From a virus (taxonomy: Duplodnaviria > Heunggongvirae > Uroviricota > Caudoviricetes), in IMG/VR virus record IMGVR_UViG_2534681672_000003, positions 1-56,022 of that record: DNA of 56,022 nucleotides. One strand, 5' to 3'. Shown here one piece after another: positions 4,915 through 29,576 of the stretch. The notes beneath the pieces were generated by a model. The model made no database searches. It had not been told where the DNA came from and saw only the letters and a program-made list of their open reading frames with translations. Positions within the stretch are counted from its first letter, which is position 1; the number at the start of each line of letters is the position of its first letter. Position numbers and translations under genes: made by a program.

Positions 4915-4924
4915 ATCCACTCCA

Positions 4925-4951
4925 CAAAAAAGCCCGCCTGAACCGGCGGGC
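4925..4951 (-). terminator. rho-independent terminator after lom
   Basis: GCCCGCC-loop-GGCGGGC hairpin followed by a T-run on the minus strand. Confidence 0.6.
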
Positions 4952-4978
4952 TGTCATAACACTGTGTTACCTGGCTAA

Positions 4979-5578
4979 TCAGAACTTATAACCGACACCC
5001 ACGATGAAACCGTCAGTGCGCCAGTCGCCACTGCCGGAGCCTTCATAAGCAATATCAATGGCCACGGATTCGGTCGGGTTAAACTGCACGCCAGCTCCCC
5101 ACGCCAGAGACGTGTTGCTGTGGCGATCGTCATCACTTCCGGTCAGCACATCGTGCGTTTTCCCCTTGTTGTCAGTTACGCGGAGATAATCCCCGGAGAA
5201 GGTCGACACACGGCTGTAAGCCATACCCGCCATCGCATAAGCACTGAACCATTCATTCACGCGTACAGATGGCCCCGCCATCATGCTGAACCAGCGGTTA
5301 CGCACGGAATCTTCATGCCAGCGGGTATCGCTGTAATGCGTTTTTTGCTCATCTTTGGCATTGGCATAACTGAATGACGTCACCAGCCCCAGCGTGTCCG
5401 TAAATTCATAACGGTATTTCACGTTAATGCCCTTCAGGTCATCACTGCCTGGCATATCAGTATGGGTCTGAAGATACCCGGCGCTTAGTGTGGACTGATG
5501 CTCTGCTGCGCTCGCTGGCGTACCAGCGGCAACCAGCCAGACTACTGCGGACAGAATAACAGCACATAATTTACGCAT
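4979..5578 (-). CDS. lom: outer-membrane protein Lom (Ail/Lom family)
   Basis: Signal peptide plus beta-barrel protein matching lambda Lom from memory; position between J and stf. Confidence 0.9.
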   Translation of the reverse strand: MRKLCAVILSAVVWLVAAGTPASAAEHQSTLSAGYLQTHTDMPGSDDLKGINVKYRYEFTDTLGLVTSFSYANAKDEQKTHYSDTRWHEDSVRNRWFSMMAGPSVRVNEWFSAYAMAGMAYSRVSTFSGDYLRVTDNKGKTHDVLTGSDDDRHSNTSLAWGAGVQFNPTESVAIDIAYEGSGSGDWRTDGFIVGVGYKF

Positions 5579-5602
5579 AATTACCTCTCGCTTTTCTGCA
5601 AT

Positions 5603-5626
5603 AAAAAAGGCACCATTTCTGGTGCC
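5603..5626 (-). terminator. rho-independent terminator after J
   Basis: GGCACCA-TTTC-TGGTGCC hairpin with adjacent T-run on the minus strand. Confidence 0.5.
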
Positions 5627-5645
5627 CGTATCTGGGTTATAAAAT

Positions 5646-11416: not shown

Positions 11417-13974
11417 CGTCCACCTCCGGAGAACAGACCACCATCGCGCATCTGCCCGGTCACAACATCCATTGCCGCCTTACGGGCTACGTCATAAACA
11501 GCCTTCAGCGCCTGTGGCCCTATCTGACCGTTCGTGCCGTCGTTGTTAATCACCACATGGTTATTCTGCTCAAACTTCCCGGACGCCTGCGACCGGCTGT
11601 CCGCCATGCTGCCCGGTGTACCGACATAACCACCGGTGGCATAGCCGCGCATCAGCCGGTAGAGATTCCCCACGCCAATCCGGCTGGTTGCCTCCTTCGT
11701 GAAGACAAATTCACCGCGGTGAACAATCCCCGCAGGCTCATATTTGCCGCCGGTTCCCGTAAATCCCCCGGTCGCAAAATGGAATTTCGCCGCAGCTGCC
11801 TGAATGGCTGTACCGCCTGACGCTGATGCGTCACCACCGACAGCACCGCCAATGACACTGCCCACACTCCCGACGATCCCCACCATTGCCTGCTTAAGCA
11901 GAATTTCTGTCATCATGGACAGCACGGAACGGGTGAAGCTGCGCCAGTTCTGCTCACTGCCGGTCAGCATCGCCGCCATATTCTGTGCAATGCCATCAAA
12001 GGTCTGCGTGGCTGCACTTTTTACCTGCGACATACTGTCTGTGGCACTCTCTTTCCACTCGCTCCAGCCGGACTTCAGGCCAGCCATCCAGCTCCCACGA
12101 AGCAGGTCTTCAGCCGCCCAGGTCTTTTTCTGCTCTGACATGACGTTATTTAGCGCCAGCGGATTATCGCCATACTGCTCCTTCAGACGCTGTTCCGTGG
12201 CGTCCCGCGCTGCCTGCCGGTCAGTAAGCCCCCGGTTTTTCGCCTCAATGGCTGCCCGTTTTGCCCGTTGTTGCTGTGCGAACTTATCCGCCTGCTGCGC
12301 CAGCGCGTTCAGGTGCTCCTGATACGTGACCTTATCGCCAAGTACAGCCAGCTGGCGTTTGTACTCCAGCGTCTCATCTTTATGCGCCAGCAGGGATTTC
12401 TCCTGTGCGGATAGCTGGCGACGTTGTGCCGCCTCCTCCAGTACCGCGAACTGATTTTCCGCCTTCCACAAATCCCGGCGCTGCTGGCTGATTTTCTCAT
12501 TTGCTCCGGCATGCTTCTCCAGCGTCCGGAGTTCAGCCTGAAGCGTCAGCAGGGCAGCATGAGCACTGTCTTCCTGACGATCGCCCGCAGACACCTTCAC
12601 GCCGGACTGTTTCGGCTTTTTCAGCGTCGCTTCATAGTCCTTTTTCGCCGCCGCCATCAGCGTGTTGTAATCTGCCTGCAGAATTTTCCCGTCCTTCAGT
12701 GCCTTGTTCAGTTCTTCCTGACGGGCGGTATATTTCTCCAGCGGCGTCTGCAGCCGTTCGTAAGCCTTCTGCGCCTCTTCGGTATATTTCAGCCGTGACG
12801 CTTCGGTATCGCTCTGCTGCTGCGCATTTTTGTCCTGTTGACTCTGCTGTTCAGCCTTCTTTCTCGCGGCTTCAAGCGCAAGACGGGCCTTTTCACGATC
12901 ATCCCAGTAACGCGCCCGCGCTTCATCGTTAACAAAATAATCATCCTTGCGCAGACTCCAGATGTCGTCCGCTTTCTTAAACGCAGCCTCTGCCTTAATC
13001 AGCATCTCCTGCGCGGTATCAGGACGACCAATATCCAGCACCGCATCCCACATGGATTTGAATGCCCGCGCTGTCCTGTCTGCCCAGGTCTCCAGCGTAC
13101 CCATGTTCTCTTTCAGGCGGCGGGTCTGGTCATCAAACCCTTTCGTCGCGGCCTCGTTCGCCGCCTGCAATGCCCCGGCTTCATCGCCGGAACGCTGCAA
13201 CTGAGCAACATACGCAATCTGCTCCGCCGTCACGTTATGGAACTGGCGTGCCATCGTTGTCAGCCCTGACGTCGGGTCTGTGGTCAGCTTCCCGAAGGCT
13301 TCAGCGACCTTGTCCACCTCCACGCCGGATGCAGAGGAGAAACGCGCCACACTCTGGCTGATGGATGCAATCTGAGCCTCACCGCTTACTCCCGCCTTAA
13401 CCAGTGCGCTGAGTGACTCGCTGGTCTGGTTAAACGTCAGCCCTGCCGCCTGCCCGGCTCTGGACAGGACCAGCATGCGATCTGCCGTCAGACCTGACTG
13501 ATGACCGGAAAGGACCAGCGTTTTGTTGAAATCGGACAGGGTTGAGTTGCCCTGATACCAGGCATACGCCAGCGCACCGGTCGCCACCGCCAGCGAGGTG
13601 GCCCCGACCATCGGCAGGGTGATCGCACCGGCAAGCCCCCTGAACATGGGGATCATCCCGCCGAAGGAGTCCTTAACCTGCCCCCCCTGTTGCAGCAGGA
13701 TCAGCCACGGACTTTGCCCGCCTGCAAGCTGCGTGGCCACGTCGGTGAACTGTGCAGGAAGCATACGCATGGCGGCTTTATACTGTCCGACGGAAATCCC
13801 CGCTTTCTGTGCAGCCAGCGCCTGCCGGTTCATTGACTGTTCAACGACTGCCGCTGTTTTTTTCGCATCACTTTCCGTACCGGAAAAATGACGCCTGACT
13901 CTGGCCATCTGCTCGTCAAATCTGGCCGCATCCAGACTCAAATCAACGACCAGATCGCCTACCGGTTCAGCCAT
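11413..13974 (-). CDS. H: tape measure protein H
   Basis: 853 aa, lambda H length and sequence as recalled. Confidence 0.95.
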   Translation of the reverse strand: MAEPVGDLVVDLSLDAARFDEQMARVRRHFSGTESDAKKTAAVVEQSMNRQALAAQKAGISVGQYKAAMRMLPAQFTDVATQLAGGQSPWLILLQQGGQVKDSFGGMIPMFRGLAGAITLPMVGATSLAVATGALAYAWYQGNSTLSDFNKTLVLSGHQSGLTADRMLVLSRAGQAAGLTFNQTSESLSALVKAGVSGEAQIASISQSVARFSSASGVEVDKVAEAFGKLTTDPTSGLTTMARQFHNVTAEQIAYVAQLQRSGDEAGALQAANEAATKGFDDQTRRLKENMGTLETWADRTARAFKSMWDAVLDIGRPDTAQEMLIKAEAAFKKADDIWSLRKDDYFVNDEARARYWDDREKARLALEAARKKAEQQSQQDKNAQQQSDTEASRLKYTEEAQKAYERLQTPLEKYTARQEELNKALKDGKILQADYNTLMAAAKKDYEATLKKPKQSGVKVSAGDRQEDSAHAALLTLQAELRTLEKHAGANEKISQQRRDLWKAENQFAVLEEAAQRRQLSAQEKSLLAHKDETLEYKRQLAVLGDKVTYQEHLNALAQQADKFAQQQRAKRAAIEAKNRGLTDRQAARDATEQRLKEQYGDNPLALNNVMSEQKKTWAAEDLLRGSWMAGLKSGWSEWKESATDSMSQVKSAATQTFDGIAQNMAAMLTGSEQNWRSFTRSVLSMMTEILLKQAMVGIVGSVGSVIGGAVGGDASASGGTAIQAAAAKFHFATGGFTGTGGKYEPAGIVHRGEFVFTKEATSRIGVGNLYRLMRGYATGGYVGTPGSMADSRSQASGKFEQNNHVVINNDGTNGQIGPQALKAVYDVARKAAMDVVTGQMRDGGLFSGGGR

Positions 13975-17352: not shown

Positions 17353-18141
17353 TTACGCCAGTTGTACGGACACGAACTCATCAGGGTCAGCCAGCAGCAT
17401 CAGCGGTGCTGACTGAATCATGGTGAACTCACGCGCCGGATCGCCGGTGGTCACCCAGTTTTTCGGGTAGCGGGCAGAGGCGTTAATGCCTTCGCGCTGT
17501 GCGTCCGCATCCTGAATGCAGCCATAGGTGCGCAGACCGCGTGCCTGAGTGTTCCCCAGCACCATCGTGTTGTCCGGCAGGAAGTTCTTTTTGACGCCGT
17601 TTTCCACGTACTGTCCGGAATACACGACGATGGCCACATCGCCATACATTCCCTTATAGGACACCGCTTTGCCCAGGTCTTTTACCGCTGTCTCCAGCTC
17701 GGAATGAGAGCCGCGACGGGTATCCAGCTTCTCCCTGACGGCTTTGAAAGAACGGAACAGCGCCCAGCCTTTCGGATCAAACACGATGATATTCACCACA
17801 CCGCTGGCGTTCAGCGCGTAGGCTTCGATATCGTCTGTCGGGTCATACGTGGACTTGTCACGCTTGCTCCACTCCGTGCCGCCGGACTGCGTGATGTTAT
17901 TCGCCTCACTGCGGCCCATATCCACCTCAACCGGATCGAAGGCTTCACCGGTCATGGTGTATTTGCCCTTAAGCACGGCAGAAACTGCCTGCATCTCTTC
18001 GACCTGAGCAATGGCCAGCTCTTCGTCACGCATGTTCTGCATGATGATGCGACGGCGGCGGTAAGTCGGGTCCGCCAGATTCTGCGGATCTTCATCCGGC
18101 AGGCGACGCAGGGTCATCTGCGGATTCACCTCATGCTTCGG
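17353..18141 (-). pseudogene. E: major capsid protein E, 3' fragment (codons from ...PKHEVNPQMTLRRLPDED to the stop)
   Basis: Lambda E C-terminal two-thirds; upstream reading frame hits a stop immediately past 18141, where unrelated AT-rich sequence begins. Confidence 0.9.
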
Positions 18142-18143
18142 CT
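18134..18143. repeat. left copy of 10-bp direct repeat TGCTTCGGCT (att core or target duplication)
   Basis: Identical 10-mer at 29567-29576; both copies lie in E codons K-P-K. Confidence 0.75.
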
Positions 18144-18220
18144 ACATGAGTCAAATATGAAAGGATGTGAATGATTTGATTACGTTTTAGCTATAGAATT
18201 GAAATGGAAAATCCTTGAAT

Positions 18221-18240
18221 GCAATACAACGTGCAATACA
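18221..18240. promoter_or_regulatory. candidate integrase arm-type site GCAATACAA-CGT-GCAATACA (left arm)
   Basis: Same motif in the same orientation at 29419-29438 near the other junction. Confidence 0.5.
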
Positions 18241-18277
18241 TGGATGAAAACCATCACTCATTTAACAAGAGGAATCT

Positions 18278-19183
18278 ATGCGCTCACCCAACAGAATGCA
18301 TGAACGCTCAACATTTTATAAGTATATGTCGTTGAATACCGCGAAGATTGTTCTTGATTCATGCAGCCTTAGATGGAGTTCTCCGGTCCTATTTAATGAC
18401 CCTTTTGATGTTCCAAGAGAAGTTATGCCTGGTATTAACGAAATTAATATTGGCAAAGCTTTAGCCCGCAAGTTAATAGCGGAGTTGATTACCCCCAGAG
18501 AAGACATACAAAATTTAAACCCTAGAATTAGAACAATGCTAAGTGATTTCCAAAAGTCATTTCCTTTAGGCATACCCGCAGGATTAATTGAAAGATTTCA
18601 AGAAATGGTAAACATTCCACCAGTTGGGATTGGCGCTCCTGCGGCAATACAAGAAATGAAAGATGTCTGGCGAGGAATGCTTAATAACAGAAGGATTTTG
18701 TGTTTATCTGAGAGCCCTATAATCACTCCTATGTGGAATCACTATGCCGATAAATATAAAGGTATAGTTATCGAATTTGATTGTGTAGACTTTCTGGATA
18801 GCGCTTGGTTAATAGCCAAACCTATGAAATACACAGATGAAATGCCTCTAACTCACACTGCTGAAGGGATGGCCGAGTTGCTTTTCATGCCAGACAATAA
18901 GTCAATTGAATATATCAATAATGAGATAATATTCATAAAAACAGAAGAATGGGCATATGAAAGAGAGTGGAGAATTTCAACCTACGCTAGGCCAAATAGC
19001 ACTGGTCAATATAGCGACTTAAAATTTCACCCTTTTGAGTTAAAATCTGTAATACTTGGTCCTCTTTTTGATGCCAGCGAGTTCGATGAAGTCGCATCAC
19101 TAGTTAAGATGTATCCAAGAGCGAAATTATTTAAAAGTTCATTTGGGAACGACAGAAAAATATCCATAGTACCACTACCTTAA
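18278..19183 (+). CDS. DUF2971 family protein (AT-rich cargo; candidate anti-phage function)
   Basis: N-terminal YKYMSLNTAKIVLDSCSLRWSSPVLFNDPFD matches the DUF2971 signature as recalled; AAGAGG RBS; low GC. Confidence 0.65.
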   Translation: MRSPNRMHERSTFYKYMSLNTAKIVLDSCSLRWSSPVLFNDPFDVPREVMPGINEINIGKALARKLIAELITPREDIQNLNPRIRTMLSDFQKSFPLGIPAGLIERFQEMVNIPPVGIGAPAAIQEMKDVWRGMLNNRRILCLSESPIITPMWNHYADKYKGIVIEFDCVDFLDSAWLIAKPMKYTDEMPLTHTAEGMAELLFMPDNKSIEYINNEIIFIKTEEWAYEREWRISTYARPNSTGQYSDLKFHPFELKSVILGPLFDASEFDEVASLVKMYPRAKLFKSSFGNDRKISIVPLP

Positions 19184-19223
19184 AAGGTCAAATGCTTTTG
19201 ACAAATAAAATCTATCGCCAGTT

Positions 19224-19240
19224 TTACTGGCGACTTTTAA
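19224..19240. terminator. bidirectional hairpin GCCAGT-TTT-ACTGGC between convergent genes
   Basis: Inverted repeat between the DUF2971 stop and the nu1-like stop. Confidence 0.45.
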
Positions 19241-19289
19241 GCAACAAAGAACCACCTAAGCACTCTTCCTACCTATGGTTTCATTTGTT

Positions 19290-19841
19290 TTAACTTCGCT
19301 GATTATCCTTGATATACCTTTCAGCCATATCTGGAATGTTATCTGAGATCTGGTAAGCTCGAATAAATGCTTTACTGACCTCCATCTTAATGAAGTCCTG
19401 ATACCGTTTTCCCATGCCAGGAAACTGTCGACAGATCGCAAGTGGAAGACTATCAATGATTGCTCCAACTTCCCCAGTTAATTTCGACAAGGCATAAGTC
19501 GCAAATGCAGTGTCAATTACCTCACCTGTTTCGCTGGCATTCTTCAGTTCCTGTGCGTCGGCCTGCGCACGCGTAAGTCGATGGCGTTCATACTCAATAG
19601 TCCCTGGCAGGAGATCTGCCTCGCTGGCCTGCCGCAGTTCTTCAACCTCCCGGCGCAGCTTTTCGTTCTCAATTTCAGCATCCCTTTCGGCATACCATTT
19701 TATGACGGCGGCAGAGTCATAAAGCACCTCATTACCCTTGCCACCGCCTCGCAGAACGGGCATTCCCTGCTCCTGCTAGTTCTGAATGGTACGGATACTC
19801 GCACCGAAAATGTCAGCCAGCTGCTTTTTGTTGGCTTCCAT
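19290..19841 (-). pseudogene. nu1-like small terminase subunit paralogue with in-frame TAG at codon 22 (possible restart at Met27)
   Basis: First two-thirds nearly identical at DNA level to helper nu1 (35283-35828) except TGG to TAG at 19776-19778; C-terminal third diverged. Confidence 0.7.
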
Positions 19842-19859
19842 TGTTCATTCCACGGACAA

Positions 19860-20060
19860 AACCAGAGAAAGGAAACGACAGAGGCCAAAAAGCCTGTTTT
19901 TAGCACCTGTCGTTTCCTTTCTTTTTAGGGGGTGTTTTTAATAAAAACATTAAGTTACGGCGAAGAAGAACGGAAACGCCTTAAACAGGAAAATTTTCAC
20001 AAATAGCGAAAAACTGCGCGCCTGACGCCCCGTAGCCTGTCAGATCGCCGGAAAGGACCC
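19860..20060. other. element cos site (cosB-like R-site sequences plus variant cosN at about 20019-20030)
   Basis: Aligns to helper cos at 35838-36030; flanks conserved, 12-nt overhang positions differ. Confidence 0.65.
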
Positions 20061-20086
20061 GCCAGCCAGAGCGGGCCCTAATTTCA

Positions 20087-20470
20087 TCAACCAATCAGCT
20101 TATAGCGACCATCCCGTGCATTGCGGCGTACACGCTCAATCTTGAGGCATAGCGCCGCATCTGGCTTTTTTGGGACAGGTACGCGGCAATATTCAGAAGC
20201 GCGAGGAATATTATTTATCCAGTCGATCACTTCACTTAAATACCAGGCCTTACGCCCTTCCGTAACCTGCACACGCTCCGGGAACTCTCCACTAGCCTCA
20301 AGGTTTAGCAGTGTACGACGACTCAGGGTTGTAATTTCCATCACCTGATTCATATCAACAAGGCGCTCGCTTAAACACATTTTGTCAGCGATAGCTTTTA
20401 ATTCCTCTACAGCTGGATTCGGGTACATCATTTCGGCAATTGGCTTAAGGTCATTGTAATCATTCTGCAT
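20087..20470 (-). CDS. AlpA/Xis-type HTH DNA-binding protein
   Basis: Motif TTLSRRTLLNLEASGEFPERVQVTEGRKAWYLSEVIDWI; AGGGGG RBS; last gene of the capsid operon, ending about 57 bp from cosN. Confidence 0.6.
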   Translation of the reverse strand: MQNDYNDLKPIAEMMYPNPAVEELKAIADKMCLSERLVDMNQVMEITTLSRRTLLNLEASGEFPERVQVTEGRKAWYLSEVIDWINNIPRASEYCRVPVPKKPDAALCLKIERVRRNARDGRYKLIG

Positions 20471-20481
20471 TGTATCCCCCT

Positions 20482-20823
20482 TTACACACGAGCCAGCGGC
20501 TGAACAGAAATACCTGAGCCAACAAACGCTGCAACCTTTACTGACAGTTCTTTAACAGACTCAGGCCAGTTCAGAGCATCAACATTTAAGACACCTGTCT
20601 TATAGACCTGAGCCTGTGTTTTTTTCGCGGTGTCGATTTGTACAGCGGAAACATAAACCGCTTTACCTACGCTCGAACCATCCCATACCACCAGTGCACC
20701 TGTTGCATCTTCCTGCATCAGTGGCGTAAATGCAGGAATTACCCCTTTATTAGCTGAAAATATCCCCAGCGTAGTCACCAGTGCTTCAGTGCCAGCCATG
20801 AGTTCAGTGTAATGAGTAGCCAT
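20482..20823 (-). CDS. head decoration protein, lambda D-like
   Basis: Alignable by eye to helper D (TPLM, WDG, YK-G, WPE, AF-G-IS shared); AGGGGGAG RBS. Confidence 0.7.
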   Translation of the reverse strand: MATHYTELMAGTEALVTTLGIFSANKGVIPAFTPLMQEDATGALVVWDGSSVGKAVYVSAVQIDTAKKTQAQVYKTGVLNVDALNWPESVKELSVKVAAFVGSGISVQPLARV

Positions 20824-20832
20824 TGCTCCCCC

Positions 20833-21873
20833 TTAGCCAATGCGAACGGTAACAAAACGATTGATGCGGGCCGGTATTGGCTGTGGTGCTGAATGTGTCT
20901 GCACATATTCAATAGCCGGATCACCAGGCACAATATAGTTTTTCGGTGCAAGTTCGGCTTTAGTCAGCCCCATTCGGATTAGCTCCGGATCCTGAATACC
21001 GCCATAGGCGACAATCCCCTGAAGAGCCGTATTGCCAAGCACCATCAAATCAGGATCAAGGAAATGTTTTTCTGTTCCGTCCTCGTCGGTATAACGCCCG
21101 CTGTAAACAACAATCGCAACATCGCCCATATACCCTTTAAAACTCACCGAATCACCAAGGTCTTTAAGGGCCGTTTCCAGTTCGGAATTAGAACCACGAC
21201 GGGTATCCAAAGCCTCTTTTATCGCTCTGAATGAACGGTATTTCTTCCATACATTACCACCCATAATGATGATATTAGTGACGCCCTCACTAAATTCTGC
21301 GTAGCTCTCAATATCATCATTTGGATCAAAAGTTTCTTTATCCTTACCTGACCACTCAGTACCGCCAGACTGAGTGATGATATTTTGTGGTTTTATATTC
21401 CAGTCCAGCTCATAACGTTCAATACCATCGCCCTCAATGATATTTTTCCCCGTTGTGATAGCCTGAACAGCAAGCCATTCAATACGTGCACGAATAGCTT
21501 TAGCCTGATTTACAATCGCCTGTTTAACTTTAATATTACGCGCCCCAAAAGCATTGTATTGCTCAGGTGACACACCAGCAGGGCGCACAGCTAACTTATT
21601 TGGATCAATGCTGCTTTTCGGCTTCATATAACCTGGACGAATTGTTTTTGATTCGTATCCCTCATCTCGTGAAACTTTACTGCCCACCATAGGAGAGCAA
21701 AACGCCGCGATCGGGATATTTGGATCGTCGATCGTATCAAGAATAATGTCTCTCGATTCAAACATTACCGAGCGAGTGAAAAACAAACTGGTAAACAACG
21801 CATTTAATTTTTTTTGTACATCTACAGCATTAACCACCTGTACAAGCTGAGTAGGCGAATATAAATCAACCAT
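20833..21873 (-). CDS. major capsid protein, lambda E-like (HK97 fold)
   Basis: 346 aa, alignable over the full length to helper E (ITQSGGTEWS, ALDTRRGSNSELETA, DVAIVVYSG shared); start trimmed to the ATG after AAGAGG. Confidence 0.8.
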   Translation of the reverse strand: MVDLYSPTQLVQVVNAVDVQKKLNALFTSLFFTRSVMFESRDIILDTIDDPNIPIAAFCSPMVGSKVSRDEGYESKTIRPGYMKPKSSIDPNKLAVRPAGVSPEQYNAFGARNIKVKQAIVNQAKAIRARIEWLAVQAITTGKNIIEGDGIERYELDWNIKPQNIITQSGGTEWSGKDKETFDPNDDIESYAEFSEGVTNIIIMGGNVWKKYRSFRAIKEALDTRRGSNSELETALKDLGDSVSFKGYMGDVAIVVYSGRYTDEDGTEKHFLDPDLMVLGNTALQGIVAYGGIQDPELIRMGLTKAELAPKNYIVPGDPAIEYVQTHSAPQPIPARINRFVTVRIG

Positions 21874-22074
21874 ACGCATCCTCTTTGCATTCATTAAAAA
21901 TAATTGTGGATATATGCTATCACCGATATTTGTCATGCGAACACATGCAACCGAGTGCAATGTTGTATAAAGTTTTGGGGTGACAACTTCAGTGCGGACA
22001 ATTAGTGTTAATATCTTCACTCCCTTTGGTCGGGATTTATGTAGCATGCAGGAAAATTTATTTTTTCCGGCCTT

Positions 22075-22792
22075 TTTGTGCACAGAAAACCCCCAGCTAG
22101 GCTGGGGGTTCCGGAAAGCTTTCAGCTTTGAGCCAGTTATTAAAACCCCTTTTGATTTGTTAAAACACTTTGCGGTCTGGCAACTGCAAGTGTCAAACAA
22201 GAAATCAAAAGGGGGTCCCAATGGGGAACGAAAAGAGCTTAGCGCACACCCGATGGAACTGTAAATATCACATAGTTTTTGCGCCAAAATACCGAAGACA
22301 GGTGTTCTACAGAGAGAAGCGTAGAGCAATAGGCAGTATTTTGAGAAAGCTGTGTGAGTGGAAAAGCGTACGGATTCTGGAAGCTGAATGCTGTGCAGAT
22401 CATATCCATATGCTTGTGGAGATCCCGCCCAAAATGAGCGTATCCGGGTTTATGGGATATCTGAAAGGGAAAAGCAGTCTGATGCTTTACGAGCAGTTTG
22501 GTGATTTGAAATTCAAATACAGGAACAGGGAGTTCTGGTGCAGAGGGTACTACGTCGATACAGTGGGTAAGAACACGGCGAAGATACAGGATTACATAAA
22601 GCACCAGCTTGAAGAGGATAAAATGGGAGAGCAGTTATCGATTCCCTATCCGGGCAGCCCGTTTACGGGCCGTAAGTAACGAAGTTGGATGCAAATGTCA
22701 GATCGTGTGCGCCTGTTAGGGCGCGGCTGGTAAGAGAGCCTTATAGGCGCATTTGAAAAACCTCCGGCTATGCCGGAGGATATTTATTTTAT
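22075..22792 (+). mobile_element. IS200 insertion sequence
   Basis: IS200-type TnpA flanked by terminal hairpins (about 22087-22110 and 22771-22789); boundaries approximate. Confidence 0.8.
22221..22679 (+). CDS. tnpA: IS200 transposase TnpA (Y1/HUH)
   Basis: MGNEKSLAHTRWNCKYHIVFAPKYRRQVFY... matches IS200 TnpA as recalled; trimmed to the ATG at 22221. Confidence 0.92.
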   Translation: MGNEKSLAHTRWNCKYHIVFAPKYRRQVFYREKRRAIGSILRKLCEWKSVRILEAECCADHIHMLVEIPPKMSVSGFMGYLKGKSSLMLYEQFGDLKFKYRNREFWCRGYYVDTVGKNTAKIQDYIKHQLEEDKMGEQLSIPYPGSPFTGRK

Positions 22793-22801
22793 TGGCAATA
22801 T

Positions 22802-23251
22802 TTAAAACGGGATATCATCTCCCCATTGCTCATTATCTCCCACTGGTGGCTGGCTTCCTTGCTGATCTGCCTGTTGTTTTGCTCTGTTCAGTGCGTCAGT
22901 AGCCTGCCCCTGTTGGCCTTTATTGCCGCCCGGTCGCACCGATCGCGCACTGATTACGCTGTCTGCGATAACCTGCCAGCCCTGCCGCGTTTCGCCGTTC
23001 TGTCCAGTCCACTGGCTCATCTGCATGTTACCCGCCACGCTCAGGAGTTCGCCTTTGTGATGCTTTGCCAGCGCGTCGGCTTGTCTGCCAAACGCCAGGA
23101 CAGATAACCACATCGTCGCCTGACCGTCATCCGACTGACTGCAGGGCAGTGATACCGCCATACGCGCCAACGTCATGGGGGTGCCCTTGCTGGTCTGTTT
23201 TGTCTGCGGGTCGTCCACCGACCGCCCGTAAACTGATATTTGCGCCGTCAT
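22802..23251 (-). CDS. SSB-like protein with C-terminal DDIPF tip
   Basis: Ends ...NEQWGDDIPF (SSB acidic-tip motif); glycine/glutamine-rich linker; AT-skewed neighbourhood. Confidence 0.5.
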   Translation of the reverse strand: MTAQISVYGRSVDDPQTKQTSKGTPMTLARMAVSLPCSQSDDGQATMWLSVLAFGRQADALAKHHKGELLSVAGNMQMSQWTGQNGETRQGWQVIADSVISARSVRPGGNKGQQGQATDALNRAKQQADQQGSQPPVGDNEQWGDDIPF

Positions 23252-23493
23252 GCGGCCTGCTCTCCGGACTTAATATTGATTGTTGTCACTTCCTCCGCTT
23301 CAGCAATCTCCCGTTCGGTCAGAGTGGCAAAGTTTGCAGCCGCCGTTGTCATGAATGCGCTAATCAGTTCGGGATGTGCTTTCGCGTATCCTTCCCCGGC
23401 GTTGCGGTCGATGATTTTTATCGACACCCTTAACCAGTGTTCCGTCAAATCAAGGGCGTGCGATTGTGATTTTTTTGTGTGCTTCGCTGTCAT
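23248..23493 (-). CDS. hypothetical protein
   Basis: 81-aa ORF, stop overlapping the SSB-like start. Confidence 0.35.
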   Translation of the reverse strand: MTAKHTKKSQSHALDLTEHWLRVSIKIIDRNAGEGYAKAHPELISAFMTTAAANFATLTEREIAEAEEVTTINIKSGEQAA

Positions 23494-23538
23494 AGGCTTT
23501 ATCTCACAGCAGTAAATTAAAATTTTTGCGTTTTAACC

Positions 23539-23770
23539 CTTCACCTGTTCACCTTTTGATATTTTCTCTTTTAATTCATAATGTTAATGGGTGAACAGTT
23601 TCACAAAAACTATTCACCAACTGTTCACCACTGTTCACCCTTGAAGCTCAATAAACAATCAAAAAGGTGAACAGTGAATAGTTTGGTGAACAGTTCATAA
23701 ATAACTGTTCACCCTATAATATACTGATATAAAAGATATTTATGACAGGGTGAACAGTGGTGAACAGTTA
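23539..23770. repeat. replication-origin iterons, about 9 copies of TGTTCACC / GGTGAACAG in both orientations
   Basis: Octamer recalled as the P4 alpha binding site at ori/crr; lies directly downstream of the primase-helicase gene. Confidence 0.7.
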
Positions 23771-23780
23771 TTCCATAAGT

Positions 23781-25601
23781 TTAATTTTTGCTATCGTCAT
23801 TAGTGACCGATACACATGATGGCATCCAGTCTTCTGATTCCTCCGTCAGGGTCACGTTTGAACGCAAACCGTGCTTCGTTTTCCGTTTCATATACTCCCT
23901 GCCATATTCCGCCATTGCCCCCGGCATATCTTTACCGAAGCGCGTCAGTGTTACAGGTTTACCAAACCCATGTGCCCTCATATAAGCCAGATAGGCATGA
24001 TAGAGATACCTGCGTGGGCTGAATGGCACAATTTCAGCATTACCCACTAACAGGCCATCACACATTACCGATGCCATGAGATAACCGCAGAAGTCCACCA
24101 GCGAATCCCCCTCTCGCTTTATCGCCAGTGCTTCTTCAGATTTCTGCTGCTCATATAACAGGCGTCTGGCTTCGTCCTGATCAGCAAACCTTGTAAGCAG
24201 ATGACGAATCACTACCGCCAGCTCACCTTCTATTTTTTCCGCCAGCATCGAATCGCGTTCGTTCTCCGGTACAACTTCCGAAAAATTGAATATCACCCGA
24301 CGACGTGAGATCCCCCCGCTGCGGTCACTGAATGACATGGCGTTATTGTTAACCGCCAGCACTACTGCCGGAATACGCGTTGAATAGGGGGCTTTGTGTT
24401 TCGGGTCAATTGCCACCTTGTCACCGCCTGTAATGGCCTTAATCCCTGCCCCATCACCAGCGTAGCGGGTCATATCCGGCATGATAATCAGCGAAAAGCC
24501 AACCACTAACGCACGTTCCCTTGCATCTTCCAGCGCCTTCATGCTTGCTGATACTGTATTAGCCTTACCCGCCAGCATGGTGCAAATCTCCGCCATCACA
24601 CTTTTACCACTTCCCCCCGGCCCTGTTACCTCAATGAATAACTGCCAGTCGTACCGGTTCGCCAGCACCATGAATAATGCCGCCAGTACGCGATCTGCCT
24701 TGCGGTCATTCTCAGCCACCGAACGGCGCAACCACTTCCAGAAATTCGGCGCATGTGTTGCCAGCGTTTCCCCCTCTGCTGGTGGGCTGAAAGGTAATTC
24801 ACTGGCAATTAACAACCAGTCGTTTTTGTTATGCTCCCGAAAGTTACCAGTTCTGGTATCAAATACCCCGTTACTGAATCCAATCAGGTTACGGGCTGTA
24901 TTCCCCATTACAGGCAAACTTAACTTCATGGTATCTACCGCCGATTTAATAGCGTTCTGCGAATAGCTGATCTCCGCATCAATGAAAATCTGCGCCATAG
25001 CACGCTGTAACTCTTTATCCTGAACCGGCTCCCATACAACGCCGTTGTAATGATGAACGGTGTCAGAGTCGGCATTGATTGCCAGTTCGCCGCCGTAATG
25101 TGCAAGGAGAACTTCACCGCGCTGGCTGGCCCCCATCTGATTCAACGCCAAAGATGAAGCACGCTCGTCATTTTTGCGCTCAGCCTTCTTCACTGGCAGT
25201 TCAATCACCAGACTTTCCCCATGCTCCGCTTCAGCTTTTAGGCCGACAAGGCGCGGAGTCCAGTCTTCAGGCTCTCGATCAACAAAGCTACGGTAACAAC
25301 GTGCTTCCTTTACGCCTGCAATAGCAAGTAATGTCGCAACCTTCGTCAGACTTTTCTCTGCAATCTTTCCGGCACGATAAACACGCACATAATGACGGCC
25401 TTCATCGATAATTTGCATATCATCCAGGTTTTCCAGTTGTTCCGTACCCAGAATGACTGGTGGTGTATCATCTGCTGCAATATGCTTACCTGCCCATTCA
25501 TTCCATTCTTTTGCATGGCTCCAGGCATCACTGCCAGCAAAAATGATGACTTCCGTCATTTTGTCGCGCGGTTGGTATTTTAAGTTCGGAGCACGTTTCA
25601 T
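23781..25601 (-). CDS. replication initiation primase-helicase (P4 alpha-like, P-loop NTPase)
   Basis: Walker A VTGPGGSGKS; 606 aa; GGAGG RBS; adjacent to the iteron origin. Confidence 0.65.
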   Translation of the reverse strand: MKRAPNLKYQPRDKMTEVIIFAGSDAWSHAKEWNEWAGKHIAADDTPPVILGTEQLENLDDMQIIDEGRHYVRVYRAGKIAEKSLTKVATLLAIAGVKEARCYRSFVDREPEDWTPRLVGLKAEAEHGESLVIELPVKKAERKNDERASSLALNQMGASQRGEVLLAHYGGELAINADSDTVHHYNGVVWEPVQDKELQRAMAQIFIDAEISYSQNAIKSAVDTMKLSLPVMGNTARNLIGFSNGVFDTRTGNFREHNKNDWLLIASELPFSPPAEGETLATHAPNFWKWLRRSVAENDRKADRVLAALFMVLANRYDWQLFIEVTGPGGSGKSVMAEICTMLAGKANTVSASMKALEDARERALVVGFSLIIMPDMTRYAGDGAGIKAITGGDKVAIDPKHKAPYSTRIPAVVLAVNNNAMSFSDRSGGISRRRVIFNFSEVVPENERDSMLAEKIEGELAVVIRHLLTRFADQDEARRLLYEQQKSEEALAIKREGDSLVDFCGYLMASVMCDGLLVGNAEIVPFSPRRYLYHAYLAYMRAHGFGKPVTLTRFGKDMPGAMAEYGREYMKRKTKHGLRSNVTLTEESEDWMPSCVSVTNDDSKN

Positions 25602-25885
25602 TTGTTACCTCCGGCAACTAACATTGCCCGAATTTTACGGATATAGCCTGCGGCACGCCTCTGATTATCTGTCTTGCAATTTTTTACCAGAATGAAATCT
25701 CTTTCGAACTGCTGACGCGGCATAACACATTCAAAATCATAACCATCACGCAAATAAGAGACACGACGATCATCAACCGAAATAATCTTTACCCGATAGC
25801 CATAGCTGTCTTTGAAAATATCCCCAAGGCTGATTTTTGAATGAGTTTGACCGCTGGCAATAAAGCCAGAAAATTTATTTTTCAT
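25598..25885 (-). CDS. hypothetical protein (replication operon)
   Basis: 95-aa ORF with ATGA overlap onto the primase start. Confidence 0.4.
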   Translation of the reverse strand: MKNKFSGFIASGQTHSKISLGDIFKDSYGYRVKIISVDDRRVSYLRDGYDFECVMPRQQFERDFILVKNCKTDNQRRAAGYIRKIRAMLVAGGNK

Positions 25886-25888
25886 TTT

Positions 25889-26113
25889 TTATTCTCCGGT
25901 ATAGCTCTGGTCGTGTATTTTTATAGCTTCATCCAGCTCTTTGATGACAGGATCAAGTAACGTAATTAACGCTCCAGCTAAATTAGCATCCCGTTCATCG
26001 TGTTCCGCATTTGTTGTCCCATCAAGCCAGGTTGATAAGATTTCTCGCATATTTTTGCCACAAACGAGCGCGTTTTCAGCATGTGTCAGCACTTTAAAAT
26101 AAAGATCATTCAT
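25889..26113 (-). CDS. hypothetical protein
   Basis: 74-aa ORF in the same operon. Confidence 0.35.
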   Translation of the reverse strand: MNDLYFKVLTHAENALVCGKNMREILSTWLDGTTNAEHDERDANLAGALITLLDPVIKELDEAIKIHDQSYTGE

Positions 26114-26471
26114 GGCACACCTCCTGACGAATACGGGCGGCGAATATCATCACGTAGCCAGTTGGGAATTGCTGGCGGGCTTCCTGTTCGCTGGCGGCCT
26201 CGATGTGTATTACGCGTGGTTGTGCGGTGCTCAGGGCGATAAAACGCCAGATGAAATTGTTTTCGCATTTCTGAATAAACAGCGTGTTTTCTTCACGCCC
26301 TTTCCAGAAAGCCGCAGTATAGCCCATCTCCTTAACCATCTTGCGGGCATCAACCAGCGTGTCAGCGGCAACATGTACCGTAGTTGCTCCATCTGCCATG
26401 CGGTCGTGGTGTAGTGCCAGAAAGGTGTATATAAATTTAGGGTGAGTTTGGGTATGCTGTGTTCCAGCCAT
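26106..26471 (-). CDS. hypothetical protein, first gene of the leftward operon
   Basis: 121 aa from the ATG after a GAGG RBS; the longer ORF-track version runs antisense through the neighbouring gene and was trimmed. Confidence 0.45.
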   Translation of the reverse strand: MAGTQHTQTHPKFIYTFLALHHDRMADGATTVHVAADTLVDARKMVKEMGYTAAFWKGREENTLFIQKCENNFIWRFIALSTAQPRVIHIEAASEQEARQQFPTGYVMIFAARIRQEVCHE

Positions 26472-26554
26472 AATCGTTACCTCGTTTAACGGTTTGGTTA
26501 GAAGCCCGGTTAGTGTTCGCGCACTGCCGGGTTTCGTCGTTTTTATGAATCGAT

Positions 26555-26670
26555 CATTGTGAGATACATAGCGACCATGATGTGAGATATACATTATAAT
26601 GTGGTGATATACATTGCAAGTGTTTTTATATCTCACTTTTGTGTATAGTGATATACACATAACAAATTGG
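26555..26670. promoter_or_regulatory. divergent promoter/operator region with repeated GTGAGATA(T)ACAT and GTGATATACA motifs
   Basis: At least five direct and inverted copies between the divergent operons. Confidence 0.6.
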
Positions 26671-26679
26671 TGATTAACT

Positions 26680-26982
26680 ATGTCTGTATACAAAAATGCA
26701 AAATCGCAAATGACAACGATCAGGGTTCCCCACGATGTTATGGAGGGCATGGAATCCGTAAAACTGGACGGCGAAAGCAACGCCGGATTCATAGTAACCG
26801 CCATGCGCGGTGAGATCGCCCGCCGCCAGGCAGAAGGAAGCGGAGAAAATCCCCTCGTGTCTTCACTGGATGCCTTAGCTAAGGTCGAACAAATCGGCAT
26901 CAAGGCAGCGGAGGAAATCGGGCAACTCGTAGCCGTCGCTCGTGAAGAACTCCAGCGGCGTAAAGCCAAAGAATCTGAATAA
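26680..26982 (+). CDS. putative ribbon-helix-helix (CopG/Arc-like) regulator
   Basis: TTIRVPHDVMEGMESVKL...NAGFIVTAMRGEI fits a strand-helix-helix pattern; sits beside the operator repeats. Confidence 0.4.
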   Translation: MSVYKNAKSQMTTIRVPHDVMEGMESVKLDGESNAGFIVTAMRGEIARRQAEGSGENPLVSSLDALAKVEQIGIKAAEEIGQLVAVAREELQRRKAKESE

Positions 26983-27332
26983 TTACTATCAGCGCCGTGA
27001 TGTGAGTAACTACGGCGCATTGCTATGTAAATACTGGCAATAAACAGAAAAGGTAGTTCTACTCCGAATAATTTTATCTGACACTACTCCTGAACTAACA
27101 TGCGCTTATCTTACAGGATATAAATATAGATCCATAAAATCACGATTAAATAAAGCCGCTCCAAACATAAACCACACCCAACGCTTAACAAGATAGCAAC
27201 AAACAGATAAATAACTTGCAGAAATATTTATCGCAAGGATTATCATTATTAATTACAAATCACTTTACCAAGTCATTCCCCTCTCTTATCATAAAGAGAA
27301 AGTAATAAATAAGTTAAGGGAGTTAGAATACT

Positions 27333-27869
27333 ATGAATCTAAAAAAAATAGCCACAAACATAAAAAACAAGATAATAGAAACATTCAATAAACTTATATT
27401 AGAGGCATCTAAAACCCCCACACAAGATGAAATTAAAATACTTGAGAGAAGAAGTAAAAAGTTTAATTACTCCTTTTTCTCATACGCAGTCACAGGAGCC
27501 ATAATGGTTTTTTGCTCTCAACCATTAATAAAATACGCAAACCCAATGCTTATTTTATTGAGTGGTCTGTTACTGTCTATCATCATTATCCTTCTCAGAA
27601 TGATTTATATTTCACAAGCGAATGCATCATGGACAACCAAAAAACGTTCACATGTACTAGTTCATTTTCTTTCTGCATGTTTCATAGCGTCAACATTGAC
27701 GTTGTTATATCAGGCTTACGATAATAACATCACACACAAATTGTACTGTAAAAATATACAACAACTTATTGAAAAAAGGATAGAAACAGAAAAAAATATC
27801 AGCATATTCAGTGGGATGCAATGCACCCCGGCATATGATTACTCTTTATTTGGATTTAATCTCTTATAA
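27333..27869 (+). CDS. AT-rich membrane protein (cargo, unknown function)
   Basis: 178 aa, hydrophobic segments, very low GC, preceded by about 300 bp of AT-rich DNA. Confidence 0.5.
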   Translation: MNLKKIATNIKNKIIETFNKLILEASKTPTQDEIKILERRSKKFNYSFFSYAVTGAIMVFCSQPLIKYANPMLILLSGLLLSIIIILLRMIYISQANASWTTKKRSHVLVHFLSACFIASTLTLLYQAYDNNITHKLYCKNIQQLIEKRIETEKNISIFSGMQCTPAYDYSLFGFNLL

Positions 27870-27938
27870 AGAATGTTATTACTGATTTGAGTGCAAATTC
27901 TCAAATCAGTAATTCATAATATTTTATTCTGAGATAAT

Positions 27939-28166
27939 TTAAACTACCCACTCACCTCGAATCCATGCCTGCACTTCTGAAAGACGATATGCAACAGCAG
28001 TGGAGCCAATCTTGATCCGCTTAGGAAATTTCCCTTCCTTCTCCAGCTTCCAGCGTGTGCTGTTCGCAAGAGTGGTTAGCTCCCGACATTCTTTCTCACG
28101 GATCATACGATCGATGTTAGGAATGTACTCCAAACCCTTTTTATCAACAATCGCCATTTTTTTCAT
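27939..28166 (-). CDS. alpA: AlpA-family transcriptional regulator/excisionase
   Basis: 75 aa with AlpA-type HTH (LTTLANSTRWKLEKEGKFPKRIKIG); directly downstream of int. Confidence 0.75.
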   Translation of the reverse strand: MKKMAIVDKKGLEYIPNIDRMIREKECRELTTLANSTRWKLEKEGKFPKRIKIGSTAVAYRLSEVQAWIRGEWVV

Positions 28167-28167
28167 G

Positions 28168-29403
28168 TTAACCAGCCTTTTGTTTGAGGATTATCACTTT
28201 TGAATCAGCACCTGCGATGCTATTGAGATATGTAGTCCAGAGTTCCAGAGCATCCAGTTTTTTAGCCATAAACTTACTCCGGTTGTAAACACCTGCCACG
28301 CCAGGTAGCGCATGGCCTAACAGTTGTTCTACTACATAAAATTCAACACCGAGATCACTTAGATGAGTAGATAGCGTTCTTCTAAGGTCGTGTAGTGACC
28401 ATTGTTTTTCATGGCCCAAACGTTTACCGATTTTCCCCCCAATCTTGCTTACGCTTTCTCTAATTCGCAGACTTCCCAGCACATAACCAGTATGTTTTGT
28501 CTCTTCGTGAACATCCGTTACCCACTGTCGTAGAATTTCAGGTACTGGTCTGACGATTTCAACACCAGTTTTTGAGTGATCTTTTGGTACCGTCCAAACC
28601 CAACTTTCGAGATCCCATTCGCTCCATTCAGATAATCGGGCTTCACTCATTCGACATCCAAATACTGTACAAAGCACAAACATTTTTCGCGTGTATTCAG
28701 ACATTAGTTTTAAATCAGGCTCGACAAAAATTGCCTTCCAGAGCTGGCCCAGTTCGGCTTCATCCAGAACCCGATCCCGCTTACCTGCAATCTGCCCCAC
28801 ATCACTCATGCGCAAATCCTTTAAAGCATCACATGTCGCGTACTGGCGTACCCGACAAAAACGAAGAGCTAATTTAGTGTCAGAAAAAACATACGCCGCC
28901 ATAACTGGTGCATTACGTTTAATTCGGTCAAAACAGTCCAGCCATTCATATAGGTGAGTGTCATTTACAGGCAAATGACCGATATAGGGAAAGATATGCT
29001 TTCGAAATCTGCCAAGCGTTACAGCATGAGTTTTACGACGCACCTTACAGTAATTTTCATACCAGTAATTTAGTGCATCCTCCACTGTGACCGGCTTTAA
29101 GCGTTCTTCAGCCTGAATCTTAATCTGGATACGCGGATCACGTTTGTCAGCCAACCAACCACGGCACTCGTCGCGCTTTTCCCTTGCCTGTTTGAGTGAC
29201 ATATCAGGATATTTACCCAACGTTAGCCAGACCGGAGCAGCCCGGCCACCTGCTAACCTGTAGAAGAAAACAAAGCTCACAGCCCCCTTGGTACTCACAC
29301 GAATAGAAAGCCCCTTTCCATCAGCAATGGTGATCTGCTTTTCTCTGGGTTTCCCCAGATATCCTTTAAGCGCTTTGTCGCTCAGTTTGTTCTCGCCAGC
29401 CAT
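28168..29403 (-). CDS. int: tyrosine integrase, P4/CP4-57 family with N-terminal arm-binding domain
   Basis: N-terminus LSDKALKGYLGKPREKQITIADGKGLSIRVSTKG; C-terminal HDLRRT...LLGH...Y catalytic motifs; trimmed to the ATG at 29403. Confidence 0.85.
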   Translation of the reverse strand: MAGENKLSDKALKGYLGKPREKQITIADGKGLSIRVSTKGAVSFVFFYRLAGGRAAPVWLTLGKYPDMSLKQAREKRDECRGWLADKRDPRIQIKIQAEERLKPVTVEDALNYWYENYCKVRRKTHAVTLGRFRKHIFPYIGHLPVNDTHLYEWLDCFDRIKRNAPVMAAYVFSDTKLALRFCRVRQYATCDALKDLRMSDVGQIAGKRDRVLDEAELGQLWKAIFVEPDLKLMSEYTRKMFVLCTVFGCRMSEARLSEWSEWDLESWVWTVPKDHSKTGVEIVRPVPEILRQWVTDVHEETKHTGYVLGSLRIRESVSKIGGKIGKRLGHEKQWSLHDLRRTLSTHLSDLGVEFYVVEQLLGHALPGVAGVYNRSKFMAKKLDALELWTTYLNSIAGADSKVIILKQKAG

Positions 29404-29418
29404 TTTTAGCCCCAAAAA

Positions 29419-29438
29419 GCAATACAAGCTGCAATACA
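29419..29438. promoter_or_regulatory. candidate integrase arm-type site GCAATACAA-GCT-GCAATACA (right arm)
   Basis: Matches the left-arm motif at 18221-18240. Confidence 0.5.
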
Positions 29439-29566
29439 GAGATGATTGCAACACACAGATAACGAGGAAAATTCAGTGAAAGCGCCAGATAAACTTATTC
29501 TTTATTATCAAAAGATTAAGTGTAAAAACCAGCAACTACACGAAAGCCTCAGAAAGCCATGCTAAG

Positions 29567-29576
29567 TGCTTCGGCT
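29567..29576. repeat. right copy of 10-bp direct repeat TGCTTCGGCT
   Basis: Identical to 18134-18143. Confidence 0.75.

Follow-up and report, generated by a model that had tools for sequence, protein, structure and literature searches.

A replication module with a P4 alpha-related helicase, a predicted iteron origin and an SSB-family gene in a satellite embedded in a lambdoid prophage

The DNA analysed here is a stretch of 56,022 nucleotides from a virus of the Caudoviricetes (Duplodnaviria; Heunggongvirae; Uroviricota), IMG/VR record IMGVR_UViG_2534681672_000003, and the whole of it is called the window below. Around positions 22,802 to 25,601 it holds a replication module made up of a 606-aa helicase-like protein, an iteron cluster and an SSB-family protein. 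The element carrying this module is a helper-embedded phage-inducible chromosomal island (HE-PICI) of the cap_E group, inserted in the capsid gene of a lambdoid prophage. All parts of the module are on the minus strand, and in the direction of transcription the order is DUF4222, the 606-aa gene, 287 bp of intergenic DNA, an 81-aa open reading frame (ORF) and SSB. The 3.2-kb region is 100% identical to the chromosome of E. coli SCU-102 (NZ_CP051753.1), and near-identical copies, with at least 80% of the region covered, were present in 71 of 5,426 complete E. coli genomes. The features of the module are as follows.

25598..25885, minus strand: DUF4222 protein, 95 aa (Pfam DUF4222, 3.4e-22); its stop overlaps the start of the 606-aa gene (ATGA)
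23781..25601, minus strand: ORF of the 606-aa Pri-Rep-type replication initiator/helicase (RefSeq WP_000817024.1, 'DNA primase family protein')
25197..25601, minus strand: N-terminal alpha/beta domain of ~135 aa (residues 1-135), in the position of the P4 alpha primase
24726..25115, minus strand: D5_N domain (residues 163-292; Pfam PF08706, E 1.4e-13), the N-terminal collar of D5/P4-type SF3 helicases
24300..24626, minus strand: SF3 P-loop ATPase core (residues 326-434; Pfam DUF5906, E 1.3e-10, and a weaker match to PPV_E1_C, the papillomavirus E1 helicase)
24600-24623, minus strand: Walker A motif GPGGSGKS (residues 327-334), read directly from the sequence
23820..24113, minus strand: C-terminal winged-helix origin-binding domain (residues 497-594; PDB 1KA8, and Pfam Pox_D5 at 497-592)
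23850..23888, minus strand: predicted wing or specificity segment (residues 572-584, KRKTKHGLRSNVT), from covariation with the iterons
23494..23780, iterons in both orientations: predicted intergenic origin region, 287 bp, with nine exact copies and one near copy of TGTTCACC
23248..23493, minus strand: 81-aa ORF (PHROG 1231); its stop overlaps the SSB start codon (ATGA)
22802..23251, minus strand: SSB-family protein, 149 aa (Pfam SSB, TIGR00621; tip codons at 22805-22819)

Most of the 606-aa protein is related to the alpha protein of the satellite P4. Residues 149-596 were 51% identical to residues 323-771 of P4 alpha, and the Walker A, LAVNNN and RRR motifs were identical or conserved between the two proteins. 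As for solved structures, residues 498-594 matched PDB 1KA8, the origin-binding domain of P4 alpha, with an E value of 1.9e-24, and residues 238-441 matched PDB 7OLA, which is entered as 'DNA primase'. The RefSeq label 'DNA primase family protein' is explained by models of the helicase part only (TIGR01613 'primase_Cterm', 95 bits, under the cut-off of 108.7). PADLOC gave no match for the helicase protein, and AlphaFold2 run on the full 606-aa sequence without an alignment reached a pLDDT of 33, which was no usable model.

A cluster of the octamer TGTTCACC begins 15 bp past the stop codon of the 606-aa gene. This octamer occurs 13 times in the window, counted on both strands, compared with 1.9 copies expected from shuffled sequences (largest count 7; 0 of 100 shuffles reached 13), and nine of the 13 copies fall within 221 bp (23546-23766). 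A tenth iteron, at 23611-23618, is the single-mismatch copy TATTCACC. The extended consensus is ACTGTTCACC; both orientations are present, and adjacent iterons in the same direction are spaced by 10-11 bp. Oppositely oriented iterons flank two AT-rich spacers of ~80% AT each (about 23714-23748 and 23554-23589), and the intergenic region forms a trough of 28-36% GC between flanks of about 50-55% GC. When the region was aligned across six genera, the iteron cores were invariant and the spacers variable. A second iteron cluster was not found in the 11.4-kb island, even with one mismatch allowed. Origins of Gram-negative PICIs have been described as iteron sets flanking AT-rich DNA (PMC6092414), and here iteron sets likewise lie around AT-rich DNA directly 3' of the rep gene. 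An earlier note, made from the letters of this DNA, had proposed a replication module, counted about nine octamers right after the 606-aa gene and named the octamer as the P4 alpha binding site. These points were borne out by the helicase profiles, the 1KA8 match, the nine exact copies and one near copy, and the P4 record NC_001609, in which the 16 annotated 'ori type 1 repeats' are TGTTCACC or one-mismatch variants of it, with 10-11 bp spacing in ori.

The relation between the C-terminal domain and the iterons was followed in 72 related loci, obtained from a scan of one genome per species. Close relatives with the same N-terminal domain were found in Raoultella, Pluralibacter, Kluyvera, Citrobacter and Klebsiella, and in the induced Klebsiella element vB_KppS-Ant. 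These carry three to eight exact copies of TGTTCACC within 450 bp past the stop codon and none elsewhere in the locus, and in them TGTTCACC is accompanied by the wing KRKTKxG[IL]RSNVTL. In P4, with only 51% identity, a related wing, KRHTKQGIQTNLTL, goes with the same iteron. In three loci (L007, L011 and L012) the C-terminal domains are otherwise almost identical, with a five-residue insertion and substitutions in residues 572-584 (..KRKQCTRGPDKGRTISNVLL; ..CTxGPDKGR..), and the iterons are four to six copies of TGTCTACC, with no TGTTCACC. Serratia variants have other sequences in the wing segment and six copies of ACTGTCCG or ACTGTCCAC, and the C-terminus differs in EcCICFT073 (the model PICI of Gram-negative bacteria; Fillol-Salom et al. 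2018, PMC6092414), which uses the iteron CTGTCTACC. Winged-helix topology places the varying segment after the recognition helix, where the wing is expected. Because the wing changes together with the iteron sequence, this comparison of sequences argues for cognate binding of the iterons by the 606-aa protein.

Two of the related loci are described here in their own right. Locus L012, from Enterobacter hormaechei (CP169086.1, locus 4001-6080), encodes a protein of 784 aa whose helicase is 80% identical to that of the window and whose N-terminus is a P4-type zinc ribbon/Toprim; it has TGTCTACC iterons and, directly downstream, an SSB homologue of 70% identity. Given this combination, N-terminal domain, iteron specificity and SSB vary independently of one another in close relatives. 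The second, LR881103.1, is deposited as 'Escherichia phage vB_KppS-Ant' (16.5 kb) and is an induced, capsid-forming PICI-like element. Its helicase is 74% identical and bears the same N-terminal domain; the element has eight exact copies of TGTTCACC at 11721-11949 and no SSB, and its capsid gene stands directly after the origin.

The 149-aa protein, noted earlier as SSB-like with a DDIPF end, proved to be a true member of the SSB family. It scored 55.6 bits with Pfam SSB (cut-off 26; 5.9e-15) and 66.2 bits with TIGR00621 (cut-off 53.95), and it matched many solved SSBs in the PDB. An OB fold (residues 4-99) is followed by a short linker and the end ...WGDDIPF, with GDDIPF as the tip. Identity to E. 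coli SSB was 22%. The equivalents of W54, F60 and W88 of the E. coli protein are kept, also across the subfamily, and at the ssDNA-stacking and tetramer positions the W40 equivalent is Gln and the H55 equivalent is Leu. The subfamily comprises 558 clusters, mostly from E. coli and Salmonella, of proteins of 133-151 aa with a short linker and the tail GD[N/D/G/E]IPF; among about 107 members the tails were DNIPF in 41, DDIPF in 34, DGIPF in 14 and DEIPF in 11. This conservation of the ..IPF tail across the subfamily shows that selection acts on the tip. At only two of the 72 related loci was a homologue of SSB found within 4 kb, and for this reason we regard SSB as an accessory that lies outside the core of the replicon. 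The 81-aa ORF was assigned to PHROG 1231 ('unknown function', E 2e-48) and had no match in Pfam, NCBIfam or PADLOC.

The SSB could also be mainly a decoy or competitor, whose ..IPF tip titrates host SSB partners or hampers helper-phage replication or host defence, with the iterons and the helicase still forming a replicon. In keeping with this, the protein is dispensable for this replicon type (absent from 70 of the 72 related loci), the EcCICFT073 assay is described as cloning of rep and ori only, and interference genes are known in PICIs (PMC6092414). The short linker, the tip that is less acidic than that of E. coli SSB (GD[NDGE]IPF versus DDDIPF) and the unconserved W40 and H55 equivalents point the same way. 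However, the OB fold scores above the curated SSB cut-offs, the W54, F60 and W88 equivalents conserved in the subfamily argue that the protein truly binds ssDNA, its gene stands beside ori in the replication zone both here and in EcCICFT073, and PADLOC gave no match for the protein. We consider a decoy role unlikely on this evidence, and prefer to see in the SSB a replication accessory.

The N-terminal part of the 606-aa protein was examined against P4 alpha, which carries Zn_Ribbon_Prim (residues 30-66) and Toprim_3 (residues 210-299). In the first ~150 residues of the 606-aa protein there was no Pfam match even at E<=1, and no zinc ribbon or Toprim profile. Alignment of the domain with the P4 primase region by hhalign gave a probability below 1%, a negative that is weaker than it appears, as the Toprim profile was shallow (Neff about 2; the search with the P4 primase region gave close relatives only). 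A profile search against PDB sequences found nothing for the domain, the top match being Cas2 at E 0.06, which was taken as chance. AlphaFold2, given an alignment of 61 sequences, confidently predicted a beta-alpha-repeat fold (pLDDT 85.8, pTM 0.79). With this model, Foldseek found nothing in the PDB (best E 0.09), and in BFVD its matches were a single viral protein that is uncharacterised (E 2.9e-4) and, after it, Toprim entries with weak scores.

When 1.84 billion cluster representatives were searched exhaustively with HMMER, only 90 proteins proved to carry the domain, nearly always at the N-terminus. In full-length members it is joined to four replicative ATPase modules, namely D5_N/DUF5906/Pox_D5, VapE-like, DUF927 and AAA_25. 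The domain is a mobile module, then, in the slot where such proteins usually carry a primase. Its invariant residues are A4, P5, E17, I20, G23, A26, P48, L56 and G78, with E17, at the N-terminal end of strand 1, as the sole acidic one, and the alignment contains no DxD motif and no Cys/His cluster. The position of the Toprim Glu, after strand 1, is A22, and that of the DxD, after strand 3, is Y/R/A (YRAG); neither is acidic. No other primase-like gene was found in the island.

These results divide the label 'primase-helicase' that the earlier note had given to the protein. The domain search proposed there returned helicase profiles (D5_N, DUF5906 and the weaker PPV_E1_C) and the origin-binding winged helix, so the helicase part of the label stands, and it returned no primase profile, so the primase part does not. 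Nor is the primase domain reduced, which was one of two options the note had left: the P4-type primase is replaced, the first ~148 residues being, by sequence, a member of an unrelated family of ~135-aa domains without primase signatures. We take the domain for a degenerate Toprim at most, and think it very improbable that it is active as a primase. As the protein has no primase domain, the host probably provides the priming. A literature search for EcCICFT073 Pri-Rep together with 'primase domain' found no relevant paper.

It has to be asked whether the domain is a minimal, non-canonical primase derived from Toprim, with which the 606-aa protein primes its own replication as P4 alpha does. 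The domain stands at the primase position, fused to four different replicative ATPase modules, and to our eye VIIFAGSDAW resembles the Toprim/P4 motif IAEGYATA with Glu changed to Ala, and YRAG would lie after strand 3 where Toprim has DxDxxG. In addition, rep and ori of EcCICFT073 replicate without other PICI genes. Against this, the zinc ribbon is absent, the Toprim Glu and DxD positions are non-acidic and no acidic residue besides E17 is invariant, profile comparisons detected no similarity to Toprim, the Foldseek search of the PDB was null, and the host of the EcCICFT073 plasmid assay had a functional DnaG. We therefore rate a cryptic primase as quite improbable. A further reading, which we hold as a tentative possibility, is that the domain is a satellite-specific primase substitute: a dead Toprim-like module that would recruit host or helper priming (DnaG, or a PriA-dependent primosome via SSB) to the SF3 helicase, and that would have been joined by shuffling to four or more unrelated families of replicative ATPases in satellites of Enterobacterales and Pasteurellaceae. 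If so, the 'Pri-Rep' proteins of Gram-negative PICIs, including that of EcCICFT073, would not be primases, and priming would depend on the host, unlike in P4.

The N-terminal 160 aa, used as the query of a word-indexed homology search, brought up almost exclusively E. coli gene fragments, and in some E. coli genomes the first ~90-140 residues are fused to an SSB domain or to a capsid E domain (P0011, P0018, P0019, P0058, P0017 and P0043). These fusions are probably deletion derivatives of such islands, a sign of frequent decay.

Taken together, we conclude with good confidence that the module is the replication zone of an 11.4-kb HE-PICI, composed of a P4-alpha-related helicase/initiator without the P4 primase, an iteron origin and an accessory SSB. 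From the computed domain content, the identity and clustering of the iterons, the covariation of wing and iteron, the synteny with EcCICFT073 and the lack of primase signatures, we infer the following course of binding, melting, priming and SSB action. The C-terminal winged-helix domain, mainly through its wing, would bind the ACTGTTCACC iterons directly 3' of its own gene. The protein would assemble as an SF3 hexamer, melt the AT-rich spacers between the opposed iteron sets and unwind the DNA with ATP. Its N-terminal ~135-aa domain would most likely be non-catalytic, possibly a degenerate Toprim, and primers would probably come from the host machinery. The 81-aa ORF and SSB would form an optional accessory pair, in which SSB may coat the unwound strands and plug its conserved ..IPF tip into host SSB-interacting replication proteins. 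The C-terminal tip of SSB is bound by both PriA and DnaG. For priming, DnaG might plausibly be recruited through SSB, or DnaB and DnaG might be loaded in a PriA-dependent way.

Several points weigh against this reading. The best structural matches of the modelled N-terminal domain, although weak, are DnaG-type primases, and the domain occupies the exact primase slot in four helicase families. P4 needs two iteron regions, ori and crr, and there is one here, so the P4 mechanism is not transferable unchanged. Origin activity and iteron binding are predictions from homology and covariation. No sigma-70-like promoter was predicted in 22650-23900, and a strong terminator-like hairpin was seen only at 22761-22779, as part of the IS200 end, with none within the module; the module is presumed to be transcribed by read-through from upstream. 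At 70 of the 72 related loci there is no SSB, and the protein here has no W40 and H55 equivalents, and its contribution is uncertain. Last, the iterons might be chiefly a regulatory or cis-enhancer element (like P4 crr, or an operator of orf81-ssb), with initiation elsewhere or passive replication in the helper prophage, and the cluster does sit where crr, not ori, sits in P4 and directly upstream of orf81-ssb, in an island that the host prophage can replicate passively (PMC10111431), but this is very improbable given that the island has no other iteron cluster, that ~80% AT stretches between opposed iterons are the organisation described for Gram-negative PICI origins, and that deletion of the equivalent EcCICFT073 region reduced plasmid maintenance (PMC6092414).

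The island spans ~18134 to 29576 (11.4 kb) and splits a lambda-E-like major capsid gene of the lambdoid prophage, with which it is co-oriented. It is bounded by a 10-bp direct-repeat identity block, TGCTTCGGCT, at 18134-18143 and 29567-29576. The annotation shows fragments of the prophage capsid gene on either side, and the sequence across the junction is ..GYVKPKH joined to EVNPQM... The island has an E-like capsid gene of its own (20833-21873, 346 aa) and a D-like decoration gene (20482-20823). The HE-PICI configuration was described in 2023 by Tommasini, Mageeney & Williams (PMC10111431), who also described a 10-bp identity block for these elements and a 'Replication zone' made up of Primase, SSB and DUF5906 families. 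Here the module sits in a unidirectional island with int and alpA upstream, as listed with the elements of the insertion sequence on its other side.

28168-29454, minus strand: int, upstream of the module on the same strand
27939-28166, minus strand: AlpA, upstream of the module on the same strand
22170-22679, plus strand: IS200C tnpA
22088-22211, plus strand: STnc490 RNA

The IS200C copy (~22078-22783) stands ~20 bp past the SSB stop and separates the replication zone from the island capsid gene. It is absent from sister islands in other genomes, whose matches begin at query position 84-88. A 498-aa capsid-like ORF (20833-22329) was considered as part of the module and rejected, being a spurious upstream extension of the 346-aa capsid gene into IS200. 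Rfam at gathering thresholds detected no P4-type immunity RNA (C4/isrK) in the island, and only the IS200 STnc490 RNA.

Other genes of the island were also observed. At its far end, on the opposite strand, 18278-19183 (plus strand) encodes a DUF2971 protein of 301 aa that matches the PADLOC candidate PDC-S31 (E 2.5e-32), and this may possibly be an anti-phage cargo gene of the satellite, a putative single-gene defence system. The gene of a Nu1-like small terminase subunit (19290-19763, minus strand) is a RefSeq pseudogene with an internal stop; its Pfam Phage_Nu1 match starts at profile position 27, with the N-terminal DNA-binding part missing, and it may be a copy in decay, or what is left of a packaging-redirection protein. 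An ORF of 178 aa with predicted hydrophobic segments (27333-27869, plus strand) lies on the opposite strand in an AT-rich stretch between alpA and a YlcI-like gene. Neither Pfam nor PADLOC placed it in a family, and a role as a cargo gene is possible.

These results matter in three ways. Neither the database name 'DNA primase' nor the 'Pri' in Pri-Rep is backed by a primase domain, which makes the priming mechanism of Gram-negative PICIs a testable question. The covariation of wing and iteron offers a code for origin specificity that is simple and can be tested, and that extends in consequence to incompatibility between P4-like and PICI replicons. The exact P4 iteron together with a P4-type origin-recognition unit in PICIs shows exchange of replication modules between satellite families that are regarded as separate.

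Among known systems, metazoan Twinkle also has a degenerate primase-like N-terminal domain, but its core is SF4 (DnaB/T7 gp4-type) versus SF3 here, and with no detectable sequence relationship the likeness is an analogy only. P4 (NC_001609; 1KA8) is much closer. It shares the D5_N and P-loop architecture, an SF3 helicase with winged-helix domain at 51% identity, the iteron TGTTCACC with 10-11 bp spacing, and a crr block that lies directly 3' of the alpha gene like the cluster here. The statements on P4 alpha biochemistry are based on the GenBank annotation and general knowledge, and a literature search for P4 alpha with type I iterons found no relevant paper. In contrast to the 322-aa zinc-ribbon/Toprim primase of P4 alpha, the protein here has an unrelated 148-aa N-terminus; P4 has ori and crr 4.5 kb apart, whereas there is a single iteron region here, with no predicted terminator between it and the 606-aa gene, unlike in P4. 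The rest of the island is PICI-like and not P4-like, with no sid, delta, psu or epsilon genes.

With respect to the satellite configuration, the island can be likened, by description, to Eco567.11capE of the 'E:Phage_cap_E' group (PMC10111431), a satellite of ~11 kb in a co-oriented lambda-E-like capsid gene, with a 10-bp att identity block and a capsid gene of its own. That study does not dissect the domains of the primase protein, the iterons or the SSB tip, unlike the present analysis.

The closest parallel in the replicon itself is EcCICFT073. It shows the same order of DUF4222, a ~600-aa 'primase family' protein, an iteron region of ~290 bp, an 85-aa ORF and SSB, including the DUF4222-rep pairing seen here. 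Its Pri-Rep is 44% identical over the full length (residues 1-593), N-terminal domain included, the 85-aa ORF is 83% identical to the 81-aa ORF, and the SSBs are 68% identical, with a GDDIPF tail in both. Int, alpA, an Icd-like gene, a capsid gene and a head-decoration gene are common to the two islands. EcCICFT073 differs in its diverged C-terminal DNA-binding domain with the iteron CTGTCTACC versus TGTTCACC here, in its chromosomal site versus the prophage capsid gene here, and in having no IS200 after the SSB gene. A plasmid with EcCICFT073 rep and ori was maintained in E. coli DH5alpha, and deletion of rep or ori lowered its maintenance (PMC6092414). The module described here is thus a further copy of the replicon kind known and tested in EcCICFT073, in the satellite configuration published in 2023.

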